DNA of 64,000 bases from Octopus vulgaris (Eukaryota), in the NCBI GenBank assembly GCA_951406725.2, contig OX597832.1, positions 49,910,001-49,974,000 on the forward strand, written 5' to 3'. The position numbers were made by a program, and so were the translations under genes. A model generated the notes under the pieces. The model searched no databases. It had not been told where the DNA came from and worked only from the letters and a program-made list of their open reading frames with translations. Each line of letters opens with the position of its first letter. Positions within the stretch are counted from its first letter, which is position 1. Positions 7,081 to 48,879 of this stretch are shown here, in pieces.

Positions 7081-9981
7081 CTGGGTAAAAAATGAAACAA
7101 TAACAAGACATATATTTCCATTTGAAACATTAAGGTTTCAACATAACCCCGTCCAGATTAGTGCTAGGAAATTAGATTGCTCATGTGTGTATATATATCG
7201 TCATCGTTTAACATCCACTTTCCATGCTCCGAAAACTCATTACATTCATGTGTGTATATATATATATATATATATACATATGAATACATACACATTTAAC
7301 ACATGCATTACACATACATACATACTAGCATTTACACACACACACATCGTCAGTAGTTCATGTATCTGAAACTGAAGTACATTCTAAAGCGTTAGAGCAG
7401 TAATGTATTTTTAGGAAGTAAAAAGTTATGACTGGTTCTAGAGTAACCATTGGTTTCGCACCCATAAAGTACTTAACAGTATAGGGAACTCATATATATA
7501 TATCATCATCATCATCATTTAACGTCTGCTTTCCATGCTAGCATGGGTTGGATGATTTGACTGAGGACTGGAAAACCAGATGGCCGCACCAGGCTCCAAT
7601 TTGATCTGGCAGTGTTTCTGCAGCTGGATGTCCTTCCTAGTGCCAACCACACTCCGAGAGTGTTGTGGGTGCTTTTACATGCCACCAGCACGAGGGCCAG
7701 TCAGGCAGTACTGTCAATGGCCATGCTCAAATGGTGTTTTTTACGTGCCAGCTGCACAGGAGCCAGTCCAGCAGCACTGGCAACAACCTCACTCGAATGC
7801 TTTTTCACATGCCACTGGCATGAGCCAGTAAGGCAACGCTGGTAACGATCACGCTCGAATGGTGCTTTTTACATGCAACCGGCACGGAAGCCAGTTTGCT
7901 GCTCTGACAAAGATCACGCTTGGATGGTGCTCTTAGTGCTCCACTAGCATGGATGCCAGTCATCGAATTTGATTTCGATGAGATATATGTGTATACAAAT
8001 ATATGTGTATATCACCAGTAGTTCATATATCCAAAAAGGAAACATACTCTAAAACATTAGAGCAGTAATATATATATTTTTTTAGGAAGTTAAAAGTTAT
8101 GGCTGGCCATAGAGTGACCATTGGTCTTGGACCTATAAAGTGCTTAGCAGTATAGGCGACTCATCAGACTCAAAAGGCTGAAGGCTCATAACTTCCCTAG
8201 AAAGGAGAAAGAAATATTTAATAGTCATGAAAAAAACATCCAGCACACTCTGTAAAGTGGTTGGTCATATATTTCCTCTGCAGTAAAGGGACCAGTTCTA
8301 GATCCTCTCACATACTTTAACCTTCTCATCACCCAGCATAAAACCACCTCCCTCAATACTACACCCCACTACTCAGTTGTGGGGTTCTGTCTTGTGAGTT
8401 ACTTGGTGACATCACCAGTGCTGGTGCCATGAAAAAAGTACCCAGTATGCTCTGTAAAGTGGTTGGTATTGGGAAGGACATCATCATCATCGTTTAGTGT
8501 CCGCTTTCCATTCTAGCATGGGTTGGACGGTTCAACTGGGGGTCTGGGAAGCCAGAAGGCTGCACCAGGCCCAGTCTGATCTGGCAATGTTTCTACAGCT
8601 GGATGCCCTTCCTAACGCCAACCACTCCGTGAGCGTAGTGGGTGCTTTTTACGTGCCAGACGAGGCTGGCAAACGGCCACAATCGGATGGTGCTTTTTAC
8701 GTGCCACCGGTACAGAGGCCAGTCGGGGCGGCGCTGGCAACGGCCATGTTCGGATGGTTCTCTTACATGCCACCGGCTGTAGAAATCATGTCAACGCAAA
8801 CACTAGAGCTTGGTGTAATTTTTCTGGCTTATCAGTTACGGTTGAATCGTCCAACCCATGTCAGCATGGAAAAGGGACATTAAATGATGAAGATGATGAT
8901 GCTGATGTACAAACTATCATCATCATTGTTTTAATGTCCACCTTTCCATACTTGCATGGGCTGGATGGAATTTGTTGAGGTGGACTTTTATGACCAGATG
9001 TTCTTCCTGTCACCAGTTCACATCCAATCACCAGAGTTAAGCAATATCAAGCCTCGTCAATACTTAGATGGGTGACTTCTTGGGAAGCCTAGGTACTGTA
9101 AACAGCTCACAATTGTCCAACCCATGCCAGCATGGACAATGGACATTAAATGACAATGATGATGATGATGATGATATGTCTATATATTTCAGTTTCTTAT
9201 TTCTTTATTGCCCACAAGGGGCTAAACATAGAGGGTACAAACAAGGACAGACAAAGGGATTAAGTCGATTACATCGACCCCAGTGCGTAACTGGTACTTA
9301 ATTTATCAACCCCAAAAGGATGAAAGACAAAGACGACCTCTGCAGAATTTGAACTCAGAGCGTAAAGACAGACGAAATACCACTAAGCATTTTGCCCGGC
9401 ATGCTAACGTTTCATATTTCTTTATTACCCACAAGGGGCTAAACAAGGACAGACAAAGGGATTAAGTCGATTACATTGACCCCCCAGTGCATAACTGGTA
9501 CTTAATTTATCGACCCTGAAAAGATGAAATACAAAGTCGACCTCAGAGCGTAAAAACAGACGAAATACCGCTAAACATTTCGCTAATGTTTCTGCCAGCT
9601 CGCCACCTTTCAGTTTCTGTCCACCAAATCCACTCACAAGGCTCTTGTTCACTTGGTGCTATAGGAAACGACACTCGCCCAAGGTGCCATGCAATGGAAC
9701 TAAACCCAGAATCATATGGCCGGGACGCAAACTTTGTACCACACAGCCATGCCTGTGTGACCACACTCACACACACACGCCTCTCAGTCTTACCCAGGTC
9801 TGTCGCCAGATTTTAGTGCCTGGGGGTGTTTCAGAATATTCTGGATGAGCACTAATTTGCAATAATGCTAAAGTGGAGTTTCAAAATAAGGGTATCACTG
9901 TAAATCTGAGGGTGCACCATTGAATACTGATGGGGGCAGTACTGTCCGGTGCAACCCCTTAGTGAAGGGCATGGGTCTTAC

Positions 9982-15351: not shown

Positions 15352-15905
15352 CATCCGCTTTCCATGCTAGCATGGGTTGGACGGTTCAACTGGGCTCTGG
15401 GAAGCCAGAAAGCTGCACCAGGCCCTGTCTGATTTGGCAATGTTTCTACGGCTGGATGCCCTTCGTAACGCCAACCACTCCGAGAGTGTAGTGGGTGCTT
15501 TTTACGTGCCACCGGCACAGGTGCTAGACGAGGCTGGCAAACGGCCACGATCGGATGGTGCTTTTCATGTGCCACTGACACAGGTGCCAGACGAGGCTGG
15601 CAAACGGCCACGATCGGATGGTGCTTTTTATGTGCCACTGACACAGGTGCCAGACGAGGCTGGCAAACGGCCACGATCGGATGGTGCTTTTTATGTGCCA
15701 CTGACACAGGTGCCAGACGAGGCTGGTAAACGGCCACGATCGGATGGTGCTTTTCACGTGCCACTGACACAGGTGCCAGACGAGGCTGGTAAACAGCCAC
15801 GATCGGCTGGTGCTTTTTACGTGCCACCGGCACGGGGGCCAGGCGAGGCTGGCAACGGCCACAATCGGATGGTGCTTTTTACGTGCCACCGGCACGGAGG
15901 CCAGT
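15352..15905 (-). mobile_element. 5'-truncated copy of the same RTE 3' UTR with a 60-bp minisatellite
   Basis: About 6 units with an exact 60-bp period. Other copies lie at about 7503-7978, 8480-8775, 10966-11184, 12590-12960, 13272-13495, 21415-21657, 32765-33040, 48145-48610, 55765-56335 and 59475-59960. Confidence 0.75.
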
Positions 15906-16056
15906 CGAGACAAACAAAATGCCACTAAGCATTTTGGCCAACATGCTAACTATTCCGCTGGCTCACTGCTTTTTCCCCAAATATAAATAGTAAAGTTTTG
16001 CAGTGAAAACAATTTAGACAACAATCTTAAGTTAATGAAGCTGAAATATATCTTAC

Positions 16057-16173
16057 CTTGGTGGTAAAAATATGGATCTCCACTCGTCCAGAATTTAAGC
16101 TTGTCATGTAAAATTACTTGGCCTATAATGGTTTGGTTTCGATTATTACTTGACGATATGCGACCACTGTCAC
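16057..16173 (-). CDS. ADP-ribosylglycohydrolase-family gene, exon 3 (GDSGRISS...IIGQVILHDKLKFWTSGDPYFYHQ)
   Basis: Acceptor cccttag and donor G|GTAAGA. 117 nt, phases 1/1. ILHD...YHQ is typical of this ARH subfamily. Confidence 0.88.
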
Positions 16174-16301
16174 CTAAGGGAAGGGTGAAAAATAGAAGAA
16201 TCATAAAGAAACAGAAATACGATAGTAAACATGGGTTCAACATCCAGCATATGAAAATTACAAAATTAGTGAAATTGATAAAAAAGAGAGTTAAATTATT
16301 C

Positions 16302-16588
16302 AGAAATATCAAATTTCTAAATATCTCATAGAGATATGTACGGTGGTGGAGCGATAGAGTGGTTGTATACTGTCAACTTAACGTGACAGTCCTGTAAGGG
16401 AATTACACCACCACTGTTTAGCCCTAGGAAGCATCGACGCTTCCTGTCGGCCTTGACACATTTCCTGTGTCCTTATATATTTACGAAGGGGAGACAAATA
16501 CCCCCAACAGCTAGGCCTGCATCTAGGGACATGCATGTTTCTGGGTCTTGCCCATCATCAGTCTAGAGTAGCAGAGACCTGCTAGCTG
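16302..16588 (-). mobile_element. Non-autonomous hammerhead-bearing Penelope-like/retrozyme-like element, family P1
   Basis: About 290 nt, homologous to 36664-37032. Contains the hammerhead. Lies in the intron upstream of ARH exon 3. Confidence 0.7.
16508..16588 (-). ncRNA. Type I hammerhead ribozyme (near-intact core)
   Basis: The minus strand reads cagctag-caggtct-ctgc-tac-tctaga CTGATGA tggg-caaga-ccca GAAA catg-catg TC cctaga-t-gcag-gc-ctagctg. It has the full catalytic core, stem II, a palindromic stem III and an extended stem I, with one A/C mismatch at the first stem I pair. Confidence 0.85.
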
Positions 16589-18291
16589 AATCTATCGTGG
16601 TTCAAAGCACTTTTCTTGAAAGGTATGACTCTTTTTGCTTTCCATGTACAAATCTTCTTTCGAATATTTTTAACTATGTACCTACCTTCATCATCAAAAT
16701 TTTCTGCTGACATCATAATTACAATCATTATTCTTGTCATTATCATCTCCACAGCTATTGACCTCATCATTAATATTAGCTTCAAGATGACTACATCTTC
16801 CAAATTGCTATCATGAATACCGTCTGGTAAATTCAGAGCTAGTGACTCTTTTTGTTAATCCAAGAATTCCAAGCTTTTGAAGACCTTCTACACAAAGATT
16901 TCATGAATTACTTGAAAGTATTATCCTTGAATTACTTTGGTTAAAAGACACCTTCAGTCATGAATGACTATAGGATAGCACCTAGAAAGTTCCCCTCCAA
17001 GACACATATCTGGGCAAGGTTGTTTATGGAAGACCAGCAGTCACCCATGCATACCAGCCTCTCCTCACCATGCCACCACTGTTATCTATTTCTTTACTAC
17101 CCACAAGGGGCTAAACACAGAGGAGACAAACAAGGACAGACAGACGGATTAAGTTGATTATATCGACCCCAGTGTGTAACTGGTACTTAATTTATCAACC
17201 CCGAAAGGATGAAAGGCAAAGTCGACCTCGGCGGAATTTGAACTCAGAACGTAACGGCAGACGAAATACGGCTACGCATTTCGCCTGGCGTGCTAATGTT
17301 TCTGCCAGCTCGCCACTGTTATCTATTGGAAAAGCAAAGGCCAATACAGCTTGGTATCAGTGATGTCGCAACTCATTTCTACAGCCGAGTGAACTGAGGC
17401 AACACAAAATAAAGTGTCTTGCTCAAGAACACAACATACAGCCCAGTCTGGGAATTGAACTCACTACCTCATTATTGTGAGCCCAATGCTCTAACCACTG
17501 AGCCATGCACCTTCACAATTCCTTGGCAACATATTGGTAATTCTAGCACTTATAGAATGTTAAACTAGACCAGGGAGTTCTTAAACATTTTTTTACCAAC
17601 AGACCCCTTTGATTAATATTTTATTCAGATGCCCCTCCCCCACTAGCCATTTGATGTTTAAAAACTAGTTTTATGGAAACCACTTTCAAAATTCCTATTT
17701 TGTATTTCACACATTAACTTGAGTAGGTTGAACTATGCACAATGCCAGAGAAAGAAACCTAGCTGTTTCTTGCAATACATACCAATACATACAAGTAAAG
17801 CAGAATTTTTCAGGGGCCCCAATTTAATATTTGTTGTGTGGCCCCCAGTTGAGAACTACTGAACTAGATAGATTAAAGGGGCAATTTTATATCTATGTCT
17901 GTCCTTTACAGGTAGAAGGCGAAGATAATGTACGACAGGCTACCATATCATCAGTTGTGAGTTCGTATCCTGCAGAGGTGTTGCACTGTGTCTATGGGAC
18001 TGAAATATAATTCTACAAATCACAGCTTATCTTGCTATCAGAAGGAAATTGAAAGAAGCCTTGTGAATGGATTTAGTATACAAAAGGAAGTTCGGTATAC
18101 TAAATCCATTCACAAAGAAGTTTGTCGTGCACGCTTGTTTTTATCTCTGCGCATGAATGTCTATGTATGTTTGTTGTTTCTTTTTCTTGACAATGTATGA
18201 TAGTTGTAAATGAATGCCAGTCATACATGCAATGTATTCATTTCCAATATTCTGCAAAAACATGTCTGGCTATAGGGAAATATTAACTTAC

Positions 18292-18700
18292 GGATCTTTT
18301 CGGTTTGAACGGCAGTTTTTTAAAATAATTTCCACGTAACTAAACACTTTTAAACTTCGTATACTGGTAGAATGTGTTTATAAAACATCTTTTTCTCTTG
18401 GCTTTATTGAGAAAATTCTATGATTTGTAAGATATTTGTTGTTGTTTATTTCTTCAATTTCTGCAATTTCAACTAATCAATGACGTCTATTGAGGTAAAA
18501 AAAAAACATTCAGTGCCATATGAATATGTCCCTCGTTTAAGAAACAGATTGGGTTTATTTACATTTGTGAAGAAAAAAAAGATACCTTTCCCCCACCCAT
18601 AACCCTAACCCTAAAACAGATTGAAATGCAATAGATCGATACTAGGGTCATAATTATGGGTGACAATTTCATATGACACTGCTAGGAAAAACGGCCGTTC
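18292..18700. mobile_element. Same Merlin-like MITE family, right TIR truncated
   Basis: High similarity to 31323-31746. Confidence 0.8.
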
Positions 18701-19537
18701 ACTTAGAAACAAGTGGGGGTTGGCGAAAAAGAGAGCATCAGGTCGTAAAAATATGCCTCAAAGATTCCGCCCAATCCATACATGCATGGAAAAGTGGATG
18801 TTGGTTGAATTTTATTATTATTATACGTTCATGTTAAAAGAGTAAAGGGAAGCAAATCTTGATATTACAGAGTAATAAATTACAAAGTTATCTCCCATAG
18901 AAATGCTTATATAAGTTTGCAGACGGAAATTCAAGTATTAACAAAATTAGATTTAAGCCATTCACGTCGCTATTAAATGACCTTGAAATAAGCATAAATG
19001 CTGCAACTTCGGGGTCTCTATTAAAGCATCAAAGACCTTGCATCTAATTAAACAGCTGTTGAGTAGCACAGCAGAGTGGAAAGCAAACCTTAGATGAAGA
19101 CGGTAATGAAGAGCCTGGAGAGGGTGTTCATGACGATGTAAATGATAACGGGGAAGTTAATGTTGATTATAATAACGACGATACTGTGTTGGTTACAAAT
19201 GATACAAAAATTAATAAGGAATAAAAATAATTAGAAAATCTTTAAAAAGCGTTGTTGTGCCTCAGTGAACCAGTTTTTTTTTTTTCACTACGTATCTATT
19301 TTAAATTATCGTTCTCTCTCTCTGCTGGAGCCTCGTGGGGCTTTAGGTGTTTTTGGTCAATAAACACACACAACGCCCGGGCTGGGAATCGAAACCGCGA
19401 TCCTCCGACCGCCAGTCCGTTGCCCTAACCACCGGGCCATTGCACCTCCACATTTCTACAAATAACCGAAAATATTTTTTAAAAAAATGGAAAAGACATG
19501 GAGGAGAAATATAGAAGGACGAGGAGGAAAATATACA

Positions 19538-19939
19538 TCTTCTTTATATATAAAAGTCAAGTTGTGTGTCTGTCTCCTACGATTTAGATTCCTAACTACT
19601 CCCACATTTTGCGGTGCAGTTTAACCAAAACCGGGTATTTTATAGTCGTGATTCATATCGAGCCCTTCTGGGTATTAGCGTGCGTCTACGATGAGTCTAC
19701 GATTTAAAAAAAAAATTTACCATTTTTTTTTCCATTTTAATGCATTTTCCCGCTATTATATAAGGGAAGTAACTCTCTAAAAATATCTACGATGAGTCAA
19801 CGATTTAAAAAAAAATTTACCATAATTTTTTTCCCATTTTTAATGCATTTTTTTCGCTATTTTTTGGCTACAACTCTCTAAAAATGCTTATATAGTTATT
19901 TCCCTTACAAACCCGAGCAACGCCGGGCGATACTGCTAG
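19538..19939 (+). mobile_element. Non-autonomous Helitron
   Basis: 5' TC(TT)TATATATAAAAG, subterminal hairpin cccgagcaacgccggg, 3' CTAG. Inserted between A and T with no TSD. Ends 40 bp from the ARH exon 2 donor. Confidence 0.85.
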
Positions 19940-19979
19940 TTGAGGATAAAAAAGAATAAAATCTGAACTGAATACTTAC

Positions 19980-36663: not shown

Positions 36664-36664
<1 letters not shown>

Positions 36665-37092
36665 TAGAATGGTTGTATACTGTCAATCTAACACGAACGT
36701 GACAGTAGGGGGGTACACCACCGCTGTATAGCCCTAGGAAGCATCGACACCTCCTGATGGCTTTGACACATTTTTCCCTGTGTCCTTATATACATTTACG
36801 AAGGGGAGACAAACACCCCCGGCCGCCGGAGCTGCATCTAGGGACACGTGTTTCAGGATCATTGTCCTTCTTCGGCCTAGAGTAGCAGACACCGGTCAGC
36901 TGGTGATATTTGTCTCGACTTCGTATTGTATATATCTATAATTCAGTGAAGTCTATTCACTGATTATCAAAATAAGAAATACTAAATTTCTAAATCTCTT
37001 GTAGAGACATGTACGGTGGTGGGGCGATAGAATCTATCGCCCCACCACCGTACATGTCTCTACGAGAGATTTAGAAATTTAGTATTTCTTAT
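36664..37092 (-). mobile_element. Family P1 element: full 363-nt monomer plus a 60-bp inverted arm, flanked by (TA)n
   Basis: atagaa recurs at 36664 and 37027. Palindrome 36972-37092 is centred on 37032. Internal hammerhead. Confidence 0.75.
36806..36916 (-). ncRNA. Type I hammerhead ribozyme, second copy (core CCGAAGA, U4 to C)
   Basis: The minus strand reads tctagg CCGAAGA agga-caatga-tcct GAAA cacgtg TC cctaga. Stem I extends out to gagacaaatatc/ggtgtttgtctc. Homologous to the 16.5-kb copy, with compensatory changes in stems II and III. Confidence 0.8.
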
Positions 37093-37094
37093 AT

Positions 37095-37495
37095 ATATTA
37101 ATAGTTATCGCCAAACTAATATGGCAGTCCATAAATATAAGACTAAAGCTGTCGCTGATTAGCTCCAAGAGGCCATCGCCTCTAGCTAGCTATATGACAC
37201 ACAAACCTGCGTCCATTACAACCTTCGAACAGGGCAACAACCCTGAAACATGTCTGCAGATGTCTGACCAGCAAGGTGAAGCGGCTGACCTCCCCTGTTC
37301 GAAGGTTGTAATGGACGCAGGTTCGTGTGTCATATAGCTAGCTAGAGGCGATGGCCTCTTGGAGCTAATCAGCGACAACTTCAGTCTTATATTTATGGAC
37401 TGTCATATTAGTTTGGCGATAACTATTAATATCCAGTAACGCTGCCGTAATCTCCTTTAGAGAGACTTAGTAATTTTAATATTTCTATTATATAT
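37095..37495 (+). mobile_element. Related Penelope-like element, family P2, with 140-bp inverted arms
   Basis: Arms 37095-37234 and 37293-37432 are near-identical inverted copies, and the spacer holds a half hammerhead. The 3' end (ccgtaatctcctttagagagacttagtaattttaatatttct) resembles the P1 end. Confidence 0.65.
37231..37259 (+). ncRNA. 3' half of a hammerhead ribozyme, truncated by an inversion junction
   Basis: aggg-caacaa-ccct GAAA catg TC tgcag gives stem II, GAAA, a palindromic stem III and UC. The CUGANGA box is replaced by the inverted arm. Confidence 0.6.
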
Positions 37496-41546: not shown

Positions 41547-41611
41547 CGTTTCCTCGATACGAGGTAGAACCACGAGGACCAGAGTTTACATGTTTTACGA
41601 AAGACATCCAT
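41547..41611 (-). CDS. ADP-ribosylglycohydrolase-family gene, candidate coding exon 1 (MDVFRKTCKLWSSWFYLVSRKR)
   Basis: Strong Kozak context gcaccATGG and donor CG|GTATGT. The phase-2 end matches the phase of exon 2 (CG+A = Arg). Unique non-repeat sequence. The link across the 21-kb intron is inferred. Confidence 0.6.
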
Positions 41612-46705: not shown

Positions 46706-48879
46706 GTCTAAGTATATATATCTATGCTTTAGGTTTACGCTGATGAAAGACATGGAGTTTATTATATTCCTAATCTAGAAACGCGTTCGTAAATAACCAT
46801 TAGACTTTGCCTTTGTTATTTCTTCCTTCTGTTTTGCATATGTAAATTACAGGGATATGTCGTATGTGGAGTCTCATTTGTAGAAAATAGAAATAAACAG
46901 TCTTTGACTGCTATTTCTAATTTTTCGGGATGTGGCTAAGCAACCTGTTGCTTGCCTCTTTTATTTATATACATTATTGGAGGAAAGCTAGTTATATATT
47001 ATCTTAAATAACTTGGTGTTGTACAATAATATATAGGTATTAAAGCAATTATAAAGAATATAAACTGAACATTTTACTGTTGAGTGACTCTAGACTGATA
47101 GTAGAGTCAAGAGTCGATTTGATCTTCACATACACACTAATAGTTGTTTTTATGTGGAGTTATGTACAAAAACAATTTAACATTAAACCAAAAGATCACT
47201 CAATACATTTTAGTCGAGTATATACAGAGCTGGATTAAGACCCATATAGATGCCCCAAGCACTTAAAAGATTTTGGTGTCCCTCCATATAAGTCTGGGAC
47301 ATTTACCTCCCCACCCCAAAGAACAATTACCCCTGACGACAACAAATGATGATTTAAAACTTAATATATTAGAGAGGGGGTAGTTGTCGTCGGTGGGGGG
47401 GATTGTTCTATGGGGTGGGGGTAATTGTCCTGATATGCTCCATATTTATGTAATTCAAAATATAAACAATAATAAACTATTAAATAAATTTTTATTTTTC
47501 AAAATGAAACAAAGCTAACAGTAAGATGGAAAATAATGTTTAATTTTTGTATACTTCCACTTATATTTGTAAAGTTTTCTCTTTTTAATTGCAAAGTCTG
47601 TGACCAGATCCTCACTACGACAACGAACACTTTAAAATTATATTTCCAATCATAATTCGAATATTATTTTAGCAAATTTAAGGTGATTTCTTTCGTACCA
47701 TAAACCATTTACCATTTCTGTGGAGCCCTATATCCCTTGATGCACTAAGCACGTGTTTGTTTTGCTAAATGGTTAATACAGCATTGAATATATAAATAAA
47801 TATCTTACAAGGAAAAAATTAAAGAAGTTTTCATCACTGGATGTAAGGGAAACAACTGTGTTGGTACAGATATTATTTGTGGTTAAATCGAAGGCAGATA
47901 TTTATCTTAGCGGAATAAAGGACTAAACTTTTATCTTCGAATCCTTTATACAGCTTTGCTGTTGTTAAGCAACAAGACGGGTAAGGGTGATAGTCTAGGG
48001 CTTAGGGGCGGGAGACCCCAGACCTTGGAAAAAAAAAAAACTTTGGTCATCTTGTAGTTGAGGGATCTTCCTTGACGCCCGACACCACTGGGAGGTGGTC
48101 CTCGAAGTCTCTGGAAATGGAGATCTCCAGGTCCAAATTCTTGCAGCCAGGAGGCTGCACCAGGATCCAGTTTGATCCGGCAGTGTTTCTACAGCTGGAT
48201 GCTCTTCCTAACGCCAACCACTCCGTGAGTGTAGTGGGTGCTTTTTACGTCCCACAAGAGGCTGGCAAACAGCCACGATCGGGTGGTGCTTTTTACGTGC
48301 CACCAGCACAGGGGCCAGAGAAAACTGGCAAACGACCACGAATGGTTGGTGCTTTTTACGTGTCACCGGTATGGACACCAGTCTAGGCGGCGCTGGCATC
48401 AGCCACGTTCGGATGGTGCATTTTACGTGCCACCGGCACGGGTATCACAGCTATAATTTCCATTTGATTTTTATTTTGATGTTGATGTAATTGACTCAAT
48501 AGGTCTCCTCAAGCACAGCAGGTCACCCTACGATCCAAGGTTAGCACAGCAGGCCGTCCTGCGAGCCATGAACTCATTTCATTTGTCGGGTTTTCGCAGT
48601 CACAGCATATATTAGTATAAATTGTTACATGTATGACTTTTTACACGCTACTGGCATAGGACCAGTCAGGCGGCACTGGCATCAACCACACTTGAATGGT
48701 GCTTTTTACGTGCTACTGGCACGAATATATATATATATATACATACATACACACGAGTGAGTGGACAAACGAAAGAAGGGCACTCAACCAATTTTTTGGG
48801 AGTTACATTTATGGATCCATATGAAGAATGTGAGCACCCTGAGAGTAAAGTAGGACATAAGAAGCATTAAATGTGGTGT

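Follow-up and report, generated by a model that had tools for sequence, protein, structure and literature searches.

Intron 2 of an ADP-ribosylglycohydrolase gene of Octopus vulgaris carries, in sense orientation, a hammerhead motif that most probably (roughly 80%) belongs to a mutated, promoter-less copy of a non-LTR-retrozyme-type repeat and would cut the host pre-mRNA little or not at all. Within the window, i.e. the whole 64-kb stretch of DNA analysed, this copy is likely a near-silent passenger of a known kind. By itself it is of little importance, as intronic retrozyme copies are common and this one carries its damage at the cut. More weight lies with the family, which appears to be an octopus retrozyme group with natural core variants and a likely snRNA-type promoter, and which also hosts a young LINE with intact reading frames, found at the predicted start of the units and at +1 of U2 genes. 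If LINE targeting indeed worked through the promoter complex, this would be a new mode of LINE site choice.

All parts of the hammerhead lie on the minus strand, at the coordinates that the earlier note had given. The 5' strand of the core, CUGAUGA (C3-A9; 16561-16555), is intact. It is followed by stem II (16542..16554 as a whole), 4 bp with a closing U-A pair, in which UGGG (16554-16551) and CCCA (16545-16542) enclose the loop CAAGA. The GAAA of the core (16541-16538), the palindromic stem III CAUGCAUG (16537-16530) and U16.1 together occupy 16529..16541, and the GUC lies at 16530-16528. The predicted cut falls between C17 (16528) and position 1.1 (16527). Stem I has five paired positions (16567-16563 with 16526-16522), while its first pair, 1.1-2.1 (A16562/C16527), is an A/C mismatch; together with an internal loop, whose 5' strand contains UAC, and the long outer stem, the stem I region covers 16505..16590. 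The CUGANGA, GAAA and NUH core elements of a canonical type I hammerhead are therefore all there and in correct order.

On comparative grounds, this motif is a real hammerhead. A strict motif scan gave a single match in the 64-kb window; in 60 simulated windows with the same dinucleotide composition it gave no match, and a loose motif 0.07 matches per window. The Rfam check proposed in the earlier note returned no hammerhead match, neither at the gathering score nor at E<=10, and the folding z-score of 0.64 was uninformative. Both could be read as signs of a coincidental match. Such a coincidence is extremely improbable given the strict scan, and it is already refuted by strong covariation across families. 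The Rfam blank does not refute the motif, because it is this covariation across octopus families that backs the fold. In an alignment of 19 sequences from the window family and related hammerhead families, 94% of cells pair versus 70% in shuffles (0/500 as high) and 24-50% in slid controls, the shuffle test being inflated by related rows and the structure having been picked by eye. Compensatory changes occur at all six stem I pairs. Pair 1.1-2.1 is AU in nine rows, GC in eight and GU in one, and is unpaired in the window copy only; the closing U-A pair of stem II is unpaired in 9/19 rows. A custom model scored the window copy, itself part of the training set, at 72.8 bits versus 76.7-83.8 bits for seven sister copies.

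The predicted architecture is that of the canonical metazoan type I, with a helix I of 6 bp in the family and a helix II of 4 bp. The window copy retains the helix II of about 4 bp and a short, dimer-competent helix III with a palindromic loop, and lacks the pairing from 1.1-2.1 onwards that is expected of a helix I of about 6 bp. The UAC internal loop of stem I is invariant across 34 copies and may resemble the loop 1-loop 2 motif of schistosomes. The label "minimal" type I, which had been attached to the motif, was wrong. Minimal hammerheads of Penelope-like elements (PLEs), as described in PMC4209133, have a long helix II, a short helix I, an extra base between 9 and 10.1, and little or no helix III. 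In contrast, the octopus family has a helix II of 4 bp, a helix I of 6 bp and a helix III. The wider suggestion is supported: the motif is a type I hammerhead, its stem III is palindromic, and it comes from a Penelope- or retrozyme-type repeat.

The host gene was assigned through exon 2, which is 96% identical to an Octopus bimaculoides protein named ADP-ribosylglycohydrolase and matches PF03747 with an E-value of 1.8e-5 and 25 bits, slightly below the cut-off of 26.2. The gene escaped a genome-wide PF03747 search on account of its short exons, and homologue mapping was used instead. By tblastn, exons were placed at 41611, 20307, 16183, 12429, 10298, 7082, 5618 and 4125. These eight exon-like pieces span 41611 to 4048 and are all on the minus strand, and the motif is therefore in sense in intron 2. 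According to spliced contigs, this GT..AG intron is 3,806 nt long (16174..19979, minus strand) and precedes exon 3 (16057..16173, minus strand). The motif lies about 353 nt before the exon 3 acceptor, which bears out the gene-sense orientation and the distance of about 350 nt claimed before. Exon 2 is joined to exon 3, with the 3,806 nt skipped, in assembled contigs (not reads) of runs X1, X2 and X5 from three studies, runs that are RNA-like by guess only; none of the runs recorded as RNA contains this stretch. Such contigs indicate that mRNA is made, and are silent on the share of transcripts cut and on RNA ends.

Other repeats surround the copy. The region of introns 2 and 3 contains a very abundant SINE-like repeat (17083-17313) and a 63-bp tandem array (15494-15909), and a degenerate 5S rRNA-like copy (8986-9104, plus strand, 43.7 bits) lies antisense in a host-gene intron. 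In the D-rich stretch upstream of the hammerhead copy, no recognisable coding fragment was found (one weak match only, E 0.045) and nothing else similar; its only repeat part is a dispersed repeat at 16944-17078.

The hammerhead forms the 5' end of a solo 291-bp copy (16300..16590, minus strand), delimited by genome homology, which begins near +4 of the predicted transcript and ends at the 3' end common to its family. As judged by its distribution, the repeat is a dispersed, non-coding unit of about 360 bp and is not gene-specific. A genome search with it produced 2,838 candidates, of which the best 40 contained 48 matches, and the exact 32-nt core pattern had 50 genome matches on many contigs. 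Upstream-extended copies reach the unit's own 3' end after 62-87 bp, and the unit is therefore about 360 bp long. This length (291 bp plus 62-87 bp) and the single type I hammerhead agree with the non-coding units of 170-400 bp that define retrozymes. Tandem cores, two in one locus, were seen in 1/57 loci of the window copy's subfamily, true tandems of 357-362 bp in the closest related family.

Insertion anatomy was compared over 57 loci (L002-L030 minus the duplicate L019, plus L078-L106). The 3' ends of the pieces cluster at 16300-16304 (53/94) and at 16345-16359 (35/94), whereas the 5' ends are variable and scattered; these counts carry a bias from the two search queries. Between the two preferred 3' ends (~16354 and ~16300) lies an optional 3' "tail" (16300..16354, minus strand; compare PMC11167929). 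Copies on both strands, i.e. with an inverted partner, were present in 30/57 loci, and (TA)n flanks were frequent. According to PMC8557442 and PMC11167929, Penelope-type insertion is marked by a two-ended 3' tail, by truncated partners in inverted orientation and by (TA)n targets. The octopus copies display such a tail, 5' truncation, inverted partners and AT-rich targets, and the family fits an animal non-LTR retrozyme with Penelope-type insertion anatomy. No target-site duplication is visible in the flanks of the window copy. Read depth over the repeat in DNA-like runs was about 100-fold higher in the 3' than in the 5' part, a ratio that does not represent copy number. The 5' ends do not pile up at the cut site: 1/94 pieces starts in the 16520s, which is no evidence either way because the sample is small and biased. 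A single family copy, L092, starts at the predicted cut site (its 5' end corresponds to 16526-16527), as expected of a reverse transcript from cleaved RNA.

The same marks raise the question whether the repeat might instead be the truncated terminal repeat (pLTR) of an unseen, protein-coding PLE. PLEs, too, have a tail, inverted partners, truncated 5' ends and (TA)n targets, and retrozymes and pLTRs are described as closely related (bioRxiv 10.64898/2026.07.22.740005). PLE pLTR hammerheads, as far as PMC4209133, PMC11167929 and PMC8557442 describe them, also share the two fixed 3' ends, the AT-rich or (TA)n targets and the palindromic helix III; their tail measures 30-40 nt, that of the octopus repeat about 54 nt. 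We nevertheless consider a pLTR quite unlikely. In extended copies, the upstream sequence leads after 62-87 bp to the 3' end of the unit itself, or else to an L1/Tx1-like LINE, and the closest related family is arranged in true 357-362-bp tandems. Furthermore, unlike PLEs, the octopus repeat had no RT/GIY-YIG frame beside it, judged by eye among ORFs of at least 140 aa in the 57 loci and not by a profile scan. An autonomous Penelope partner was likewise not found among the long ORFs near copies in these loci.

The free-standing retrozyme, our preferred reading, has close counterparts in the metazoan non-LTR retrozymes of mussel, coral and axolotl (PMC7229834, bioRxiv 10.64898/2026.07.22.740005). 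In the accounts given there, these are likewise non-coding units of about 360 bp (350-390 bp in mussel). They carry a canonical type I hammerhead whose helix III is short and palindromic, and they occur as dispersed solo monomers, often in introns. The octopus case differs in that the monomer in the window stands alone and its 1.1-2.1 pair is broken, and in that its subfamily seldom forms full tandems. We found no octopus retrozyme family in the papers searched, although the supplements of retrozyme papers and Repbase may already list one.

The key feature of the window copy is the damage next to its cutting site. Position 16527 (1.1) is U in 34/34 other aligned copies and C in the window copy. 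When this position was left free in the exact 32-nt pattern, U was present in 48/50 matches and C in two, namely the window copy and a more decayed copy on C15. The C makes pair 1.1-2.1 an A/C mismatch. It is one of three private changes in 291 nt (16577, 16527 and 16310) relative to the 34 aligned copies, and the comparison identifies the mismatch as damage private to this copy rather than a family trait. A mismatch at pair 1.1-2.1 is expected to slow hammerhead cleavage strongly. Since the mutation adjoins the cut site, the copy likely cuts little or not at all. Of the two outcomes that had been envisaged, attenuation by the mismatch is thus the one favoured by the U at 16527 in all 34 sisters. 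Efficient or functional co-transcriptional cutting of the pre-mRNA gained no support, given the private mismatch, the lack of a same-palindrome copy in the gene and the splicing of the intron.

Some points speak against near-silence. The catalytic core has stayed intact, and stem I retains five of its pairs together with the long outer stem. The monomer might therefore still cut modestly through loop 1-loop 2 contacts, without being under selection, with splicing proceeding anyway or the loss being tolerated. The canonical sizes of helices I and II and the UAC loop invariant in 34 copies would fit this, and so would the distance of only about 353 nt from cut to acceptor. Moreover, invertebrate retrozyme monomers with a 2-bp helix III can cleave, at about 0.8/min in coral and about 0.1/min in mussel (PMC7229834). 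We regard such residual cleavage as unlikely, because pair 1.1-2.1 is maintained in 18/19 rows, often through a double change, and contigs of spliced mRNA exist. In addition, stem II and the outer stem I are formed in the minimum-energy fold of the window copy, whereas its core is paired with the palindrome; the active fold has a weight of about 0.3%. Nearest-neighbour energies give active-fold penalties of 3.6 versus 3.7 kcal/mol, and do not separate the window copy from intact ones. Published hammerheads of retrozymes and PLEs often cleave poorly alone: in Xenopus, one of nine retrozyme dimers was cleaved (bioRxiv 10.64898/2026.07.22.740005), and a PLE hammerhead needed its protein for cleavage (PMC11167929).

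By analogy with CPEB3, the mismatch could also be seen as tuning, slowing the cut to match exon 3 splicing and thereby setting ADP-ribosylglycohydrolase output. The sense orientation close to the acceptor, the second sense relative in intron 1 (see below) and the precedent of the intronic CPEB3 ribozyme (PMC10919898) are in line with such a host role. It is very unlikely all the same. The CPEB3 ribozyme and the amniote hammerheads (PMC6765202), for which a host role has been proposed and which are also sense, intronic and close upstream of an exon, are reported as conserved. In contrast, the octopus copy is young (three private changes in 291 nt), disrupted and without signs of conservation, and the identical change recurs in a decayed copy at another locus. 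The intronic location is unremarkable, because 42-44% of Xenopus retrozyme copies are intronic (bioRxiv 10.64898/2026.07.22.740005). Finally, a flank contig (region 16588-16720) of X18, which carries another organism label, runs into unlike sequence at 16588, and the X19 contig ends at 16598; those of X17 and X1 extend into the repeat. Weakly, this hints at an insertion not shared by all, either polymorphic or species-limited. For the question of host cost, the damaged passenger offers a natural pair: a broken copy 353 nt before an exon versus near-identical intact sisters.

Stem III would favour cleavage as a dimer, as its hairpin is computed to be unstable (+1.7 kcal/mol) and its homodimer stable (-13.3 kcal/mol). 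The search found no second copy with a matching palindrome in the host gene, nor any copy within 20 kb outside the window start. Apart from the window copy, the gene holds one sense relative only, situated in intron 1 (36664..37031, minus strand), about 20 kb upstream of the window copy and 79% identical. Its promoter motif is at 36964, its 1.1-2.1 pair is G-C and its core CCGAAGA, and its stem III palindrome is different. This relative (36664-37089 with an inverted tail) is older, has all three stems paired and is structurally more complete than the window copy; its U4C change may reduce activity, going by PMC9901934. The custom model also matched two hammerhead-like plus-strand stretches of the window. 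One, at 46717-46828 (22.5 bits), has CUGAUGA, GAAA, a CGCG palindrome, a 6-bp stem I and a long stem II insert; the other, at 37202-37295 (26.4 bits), is apparently a truncated relative.

Intact units of the family carry what we infer, from U1/U2 geometry, to be a U1/U2-type promoter and start site. The motif ATCAGTGAA is located at -57 to -59 of 15/15 U1 genes, mostly of one cluster. The motif or its core recurs at -58 to -60 before U2 genes (shared at the U2 sites L131, L134 and L136) and before the ATC in the window family and most related families, the background chance being about 0.7% per 5-nt slot. It sits at -58 in the window copy's family, where 11/43 cores in the loci carry it. Exceptions are one related family with a variant at -56 and one case at -50. 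The window copy itself begins 3 nt after the ATC equivalent. It has lost the upstream 65-70 bp or so of the unit, and ATCAGTGAA is absent upstream of it. Newt satellite 2, cited in PMC2220036, is likewise a hammerhead repeat whose unit contains an snRNA-type promoter; the octopus promoter differs in being deduced from a motif common to U1/U2 genes at the same distance. At U6 genes, the motif at -58 was not evident by eye; a tandem U6 array (L153-L157) has an octamer-like motif and a TATA box at -30 instead. In the repeat, the common 3' end (16300) directly precedes a four-T run of the unit (3' sequence of L012, L084 and L094), and a TA-rich box lies about 30 bp before the predicted start. Polymerase III is therefore an alternative to a U1/U2-type polymerase II.

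We propose that intact units would be transcribed from this promoter, starting about 66 nt before the cut. In tandem transcripts, two hammerheads would pair via their palindromic stem III and release unit-length, probably circular RNA. A Penelope-like reverse transcriptase/endonuclease would then copy this RNA back into AT-rich DNA. The window copy would be a reverse transcript that extends from close to the start site as far as the 3' end; it would have been inserted in the intron and mutated afterwards.

Besides their own mobility, the hammerhead repeats are invaded by another element. Four sister copies are preceded by the 3' end of a LINE, and target duplications of 16-17 bp at the LINE/unit joins indicate that the LINE inserted into the hammerhead unit. 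Chimeras or an autonomous partner were rejected as explanations of these joins, as target duplications flank both sides. The LINE is about 5.4 kb long, with intact frames in L115, forms tandem arrays and makes 15-20-bp duplications (L031, L073, L107-L144). Its zinc knuckle in ORF1, the APE, RT and zf-RVT domains in ORF2 and the target duplications place it in the L1 group only. "Tx1-like" is our presumptive label, since its homologues carried no Tx1 names.

An internal probe sampled 38 of 40 LINE matches (the query and one tandem-array member were left out), which adjoined hammerhead repeats in 30 cases, U2 in four and another LINE in four. This sample favours near-full-length copies, and some LINE+unit composites may have moved together. 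The 30 hammerhead sites comprise six in the window copy's family and 16, 4, 3 and 1 in its relatives, the 16 being near-identical and partly from one array. The LINE sits at the predicted +1 of the hammerhead repeats (30/38) and at +1 of U2 genes (4/38); in both U2 loci scanned with Rfam, the whole U2 gene begins at the LINE junction. Most hammerhead families share downstream similarity, and are therefore divergent relatives and not unrelated. Within the largest group, divergence is 0.8% among the LINE copies and 2.7-3.6% among the flanking units, which fits insertion into pre-existing units. Of 30 LINE 3' ends, mostly of short truncated copies, four lie in the window copy's family (two by construction), and about four more adjoin hammerhead-like motifs. 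No LINE was found beside the 15 U1 genes. In the LINE tree, the youngest group lacks one clade per target.

Our results are compatible, at even odds, with the idea that the family is an snRNA-promoter-driven retrozyme and that the LINE reads promoter position rather than target sequence, landing at the transcription start. At U2 and at several hammerhead repeats that have diverged from each other, it would insert at +1, about 58 bp downstream of a proximal element common to all of them. The snRNA transcription machinery would tether it, and it would live as a parasite of another parasite. The inserted LINE would take over the promoter, and the downstream hammerhead could trim its 3' end. Its closest counterparts, the target-specific Tx1-clade elements Keno (U2), Tx1L and Tx1-Mar (PMC4494074, PMC4640811), are likewise LINEs with APE, RT and zf-RVT that enter repeats or U2 with 15-20-bp duplications. 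However, Keno and Utopia insertions are followed by U2 from nucleotide 39 (PMC4640811), the octopus LINE by U2 from position 1. The octopus LINE is also unlike these two in hitting the same promoter-relative spot of several divergent hammerhead repeats. The Tx1 targets named in PMC4494074 do not include hammerhead repeats, and we found no report of a LINE targeting them in the papers searched, although Repbase and supplements may already list this one.

The related hammerhead families themselves vary in the core. Natural changes combine U3 with A8 or U3 with G8 (L113, L115-L130, L141; L127, L133, L142, L143), and C is frequent at position 4. A U3-A8 core has been described in schistosome PLEs (PMC4209133).
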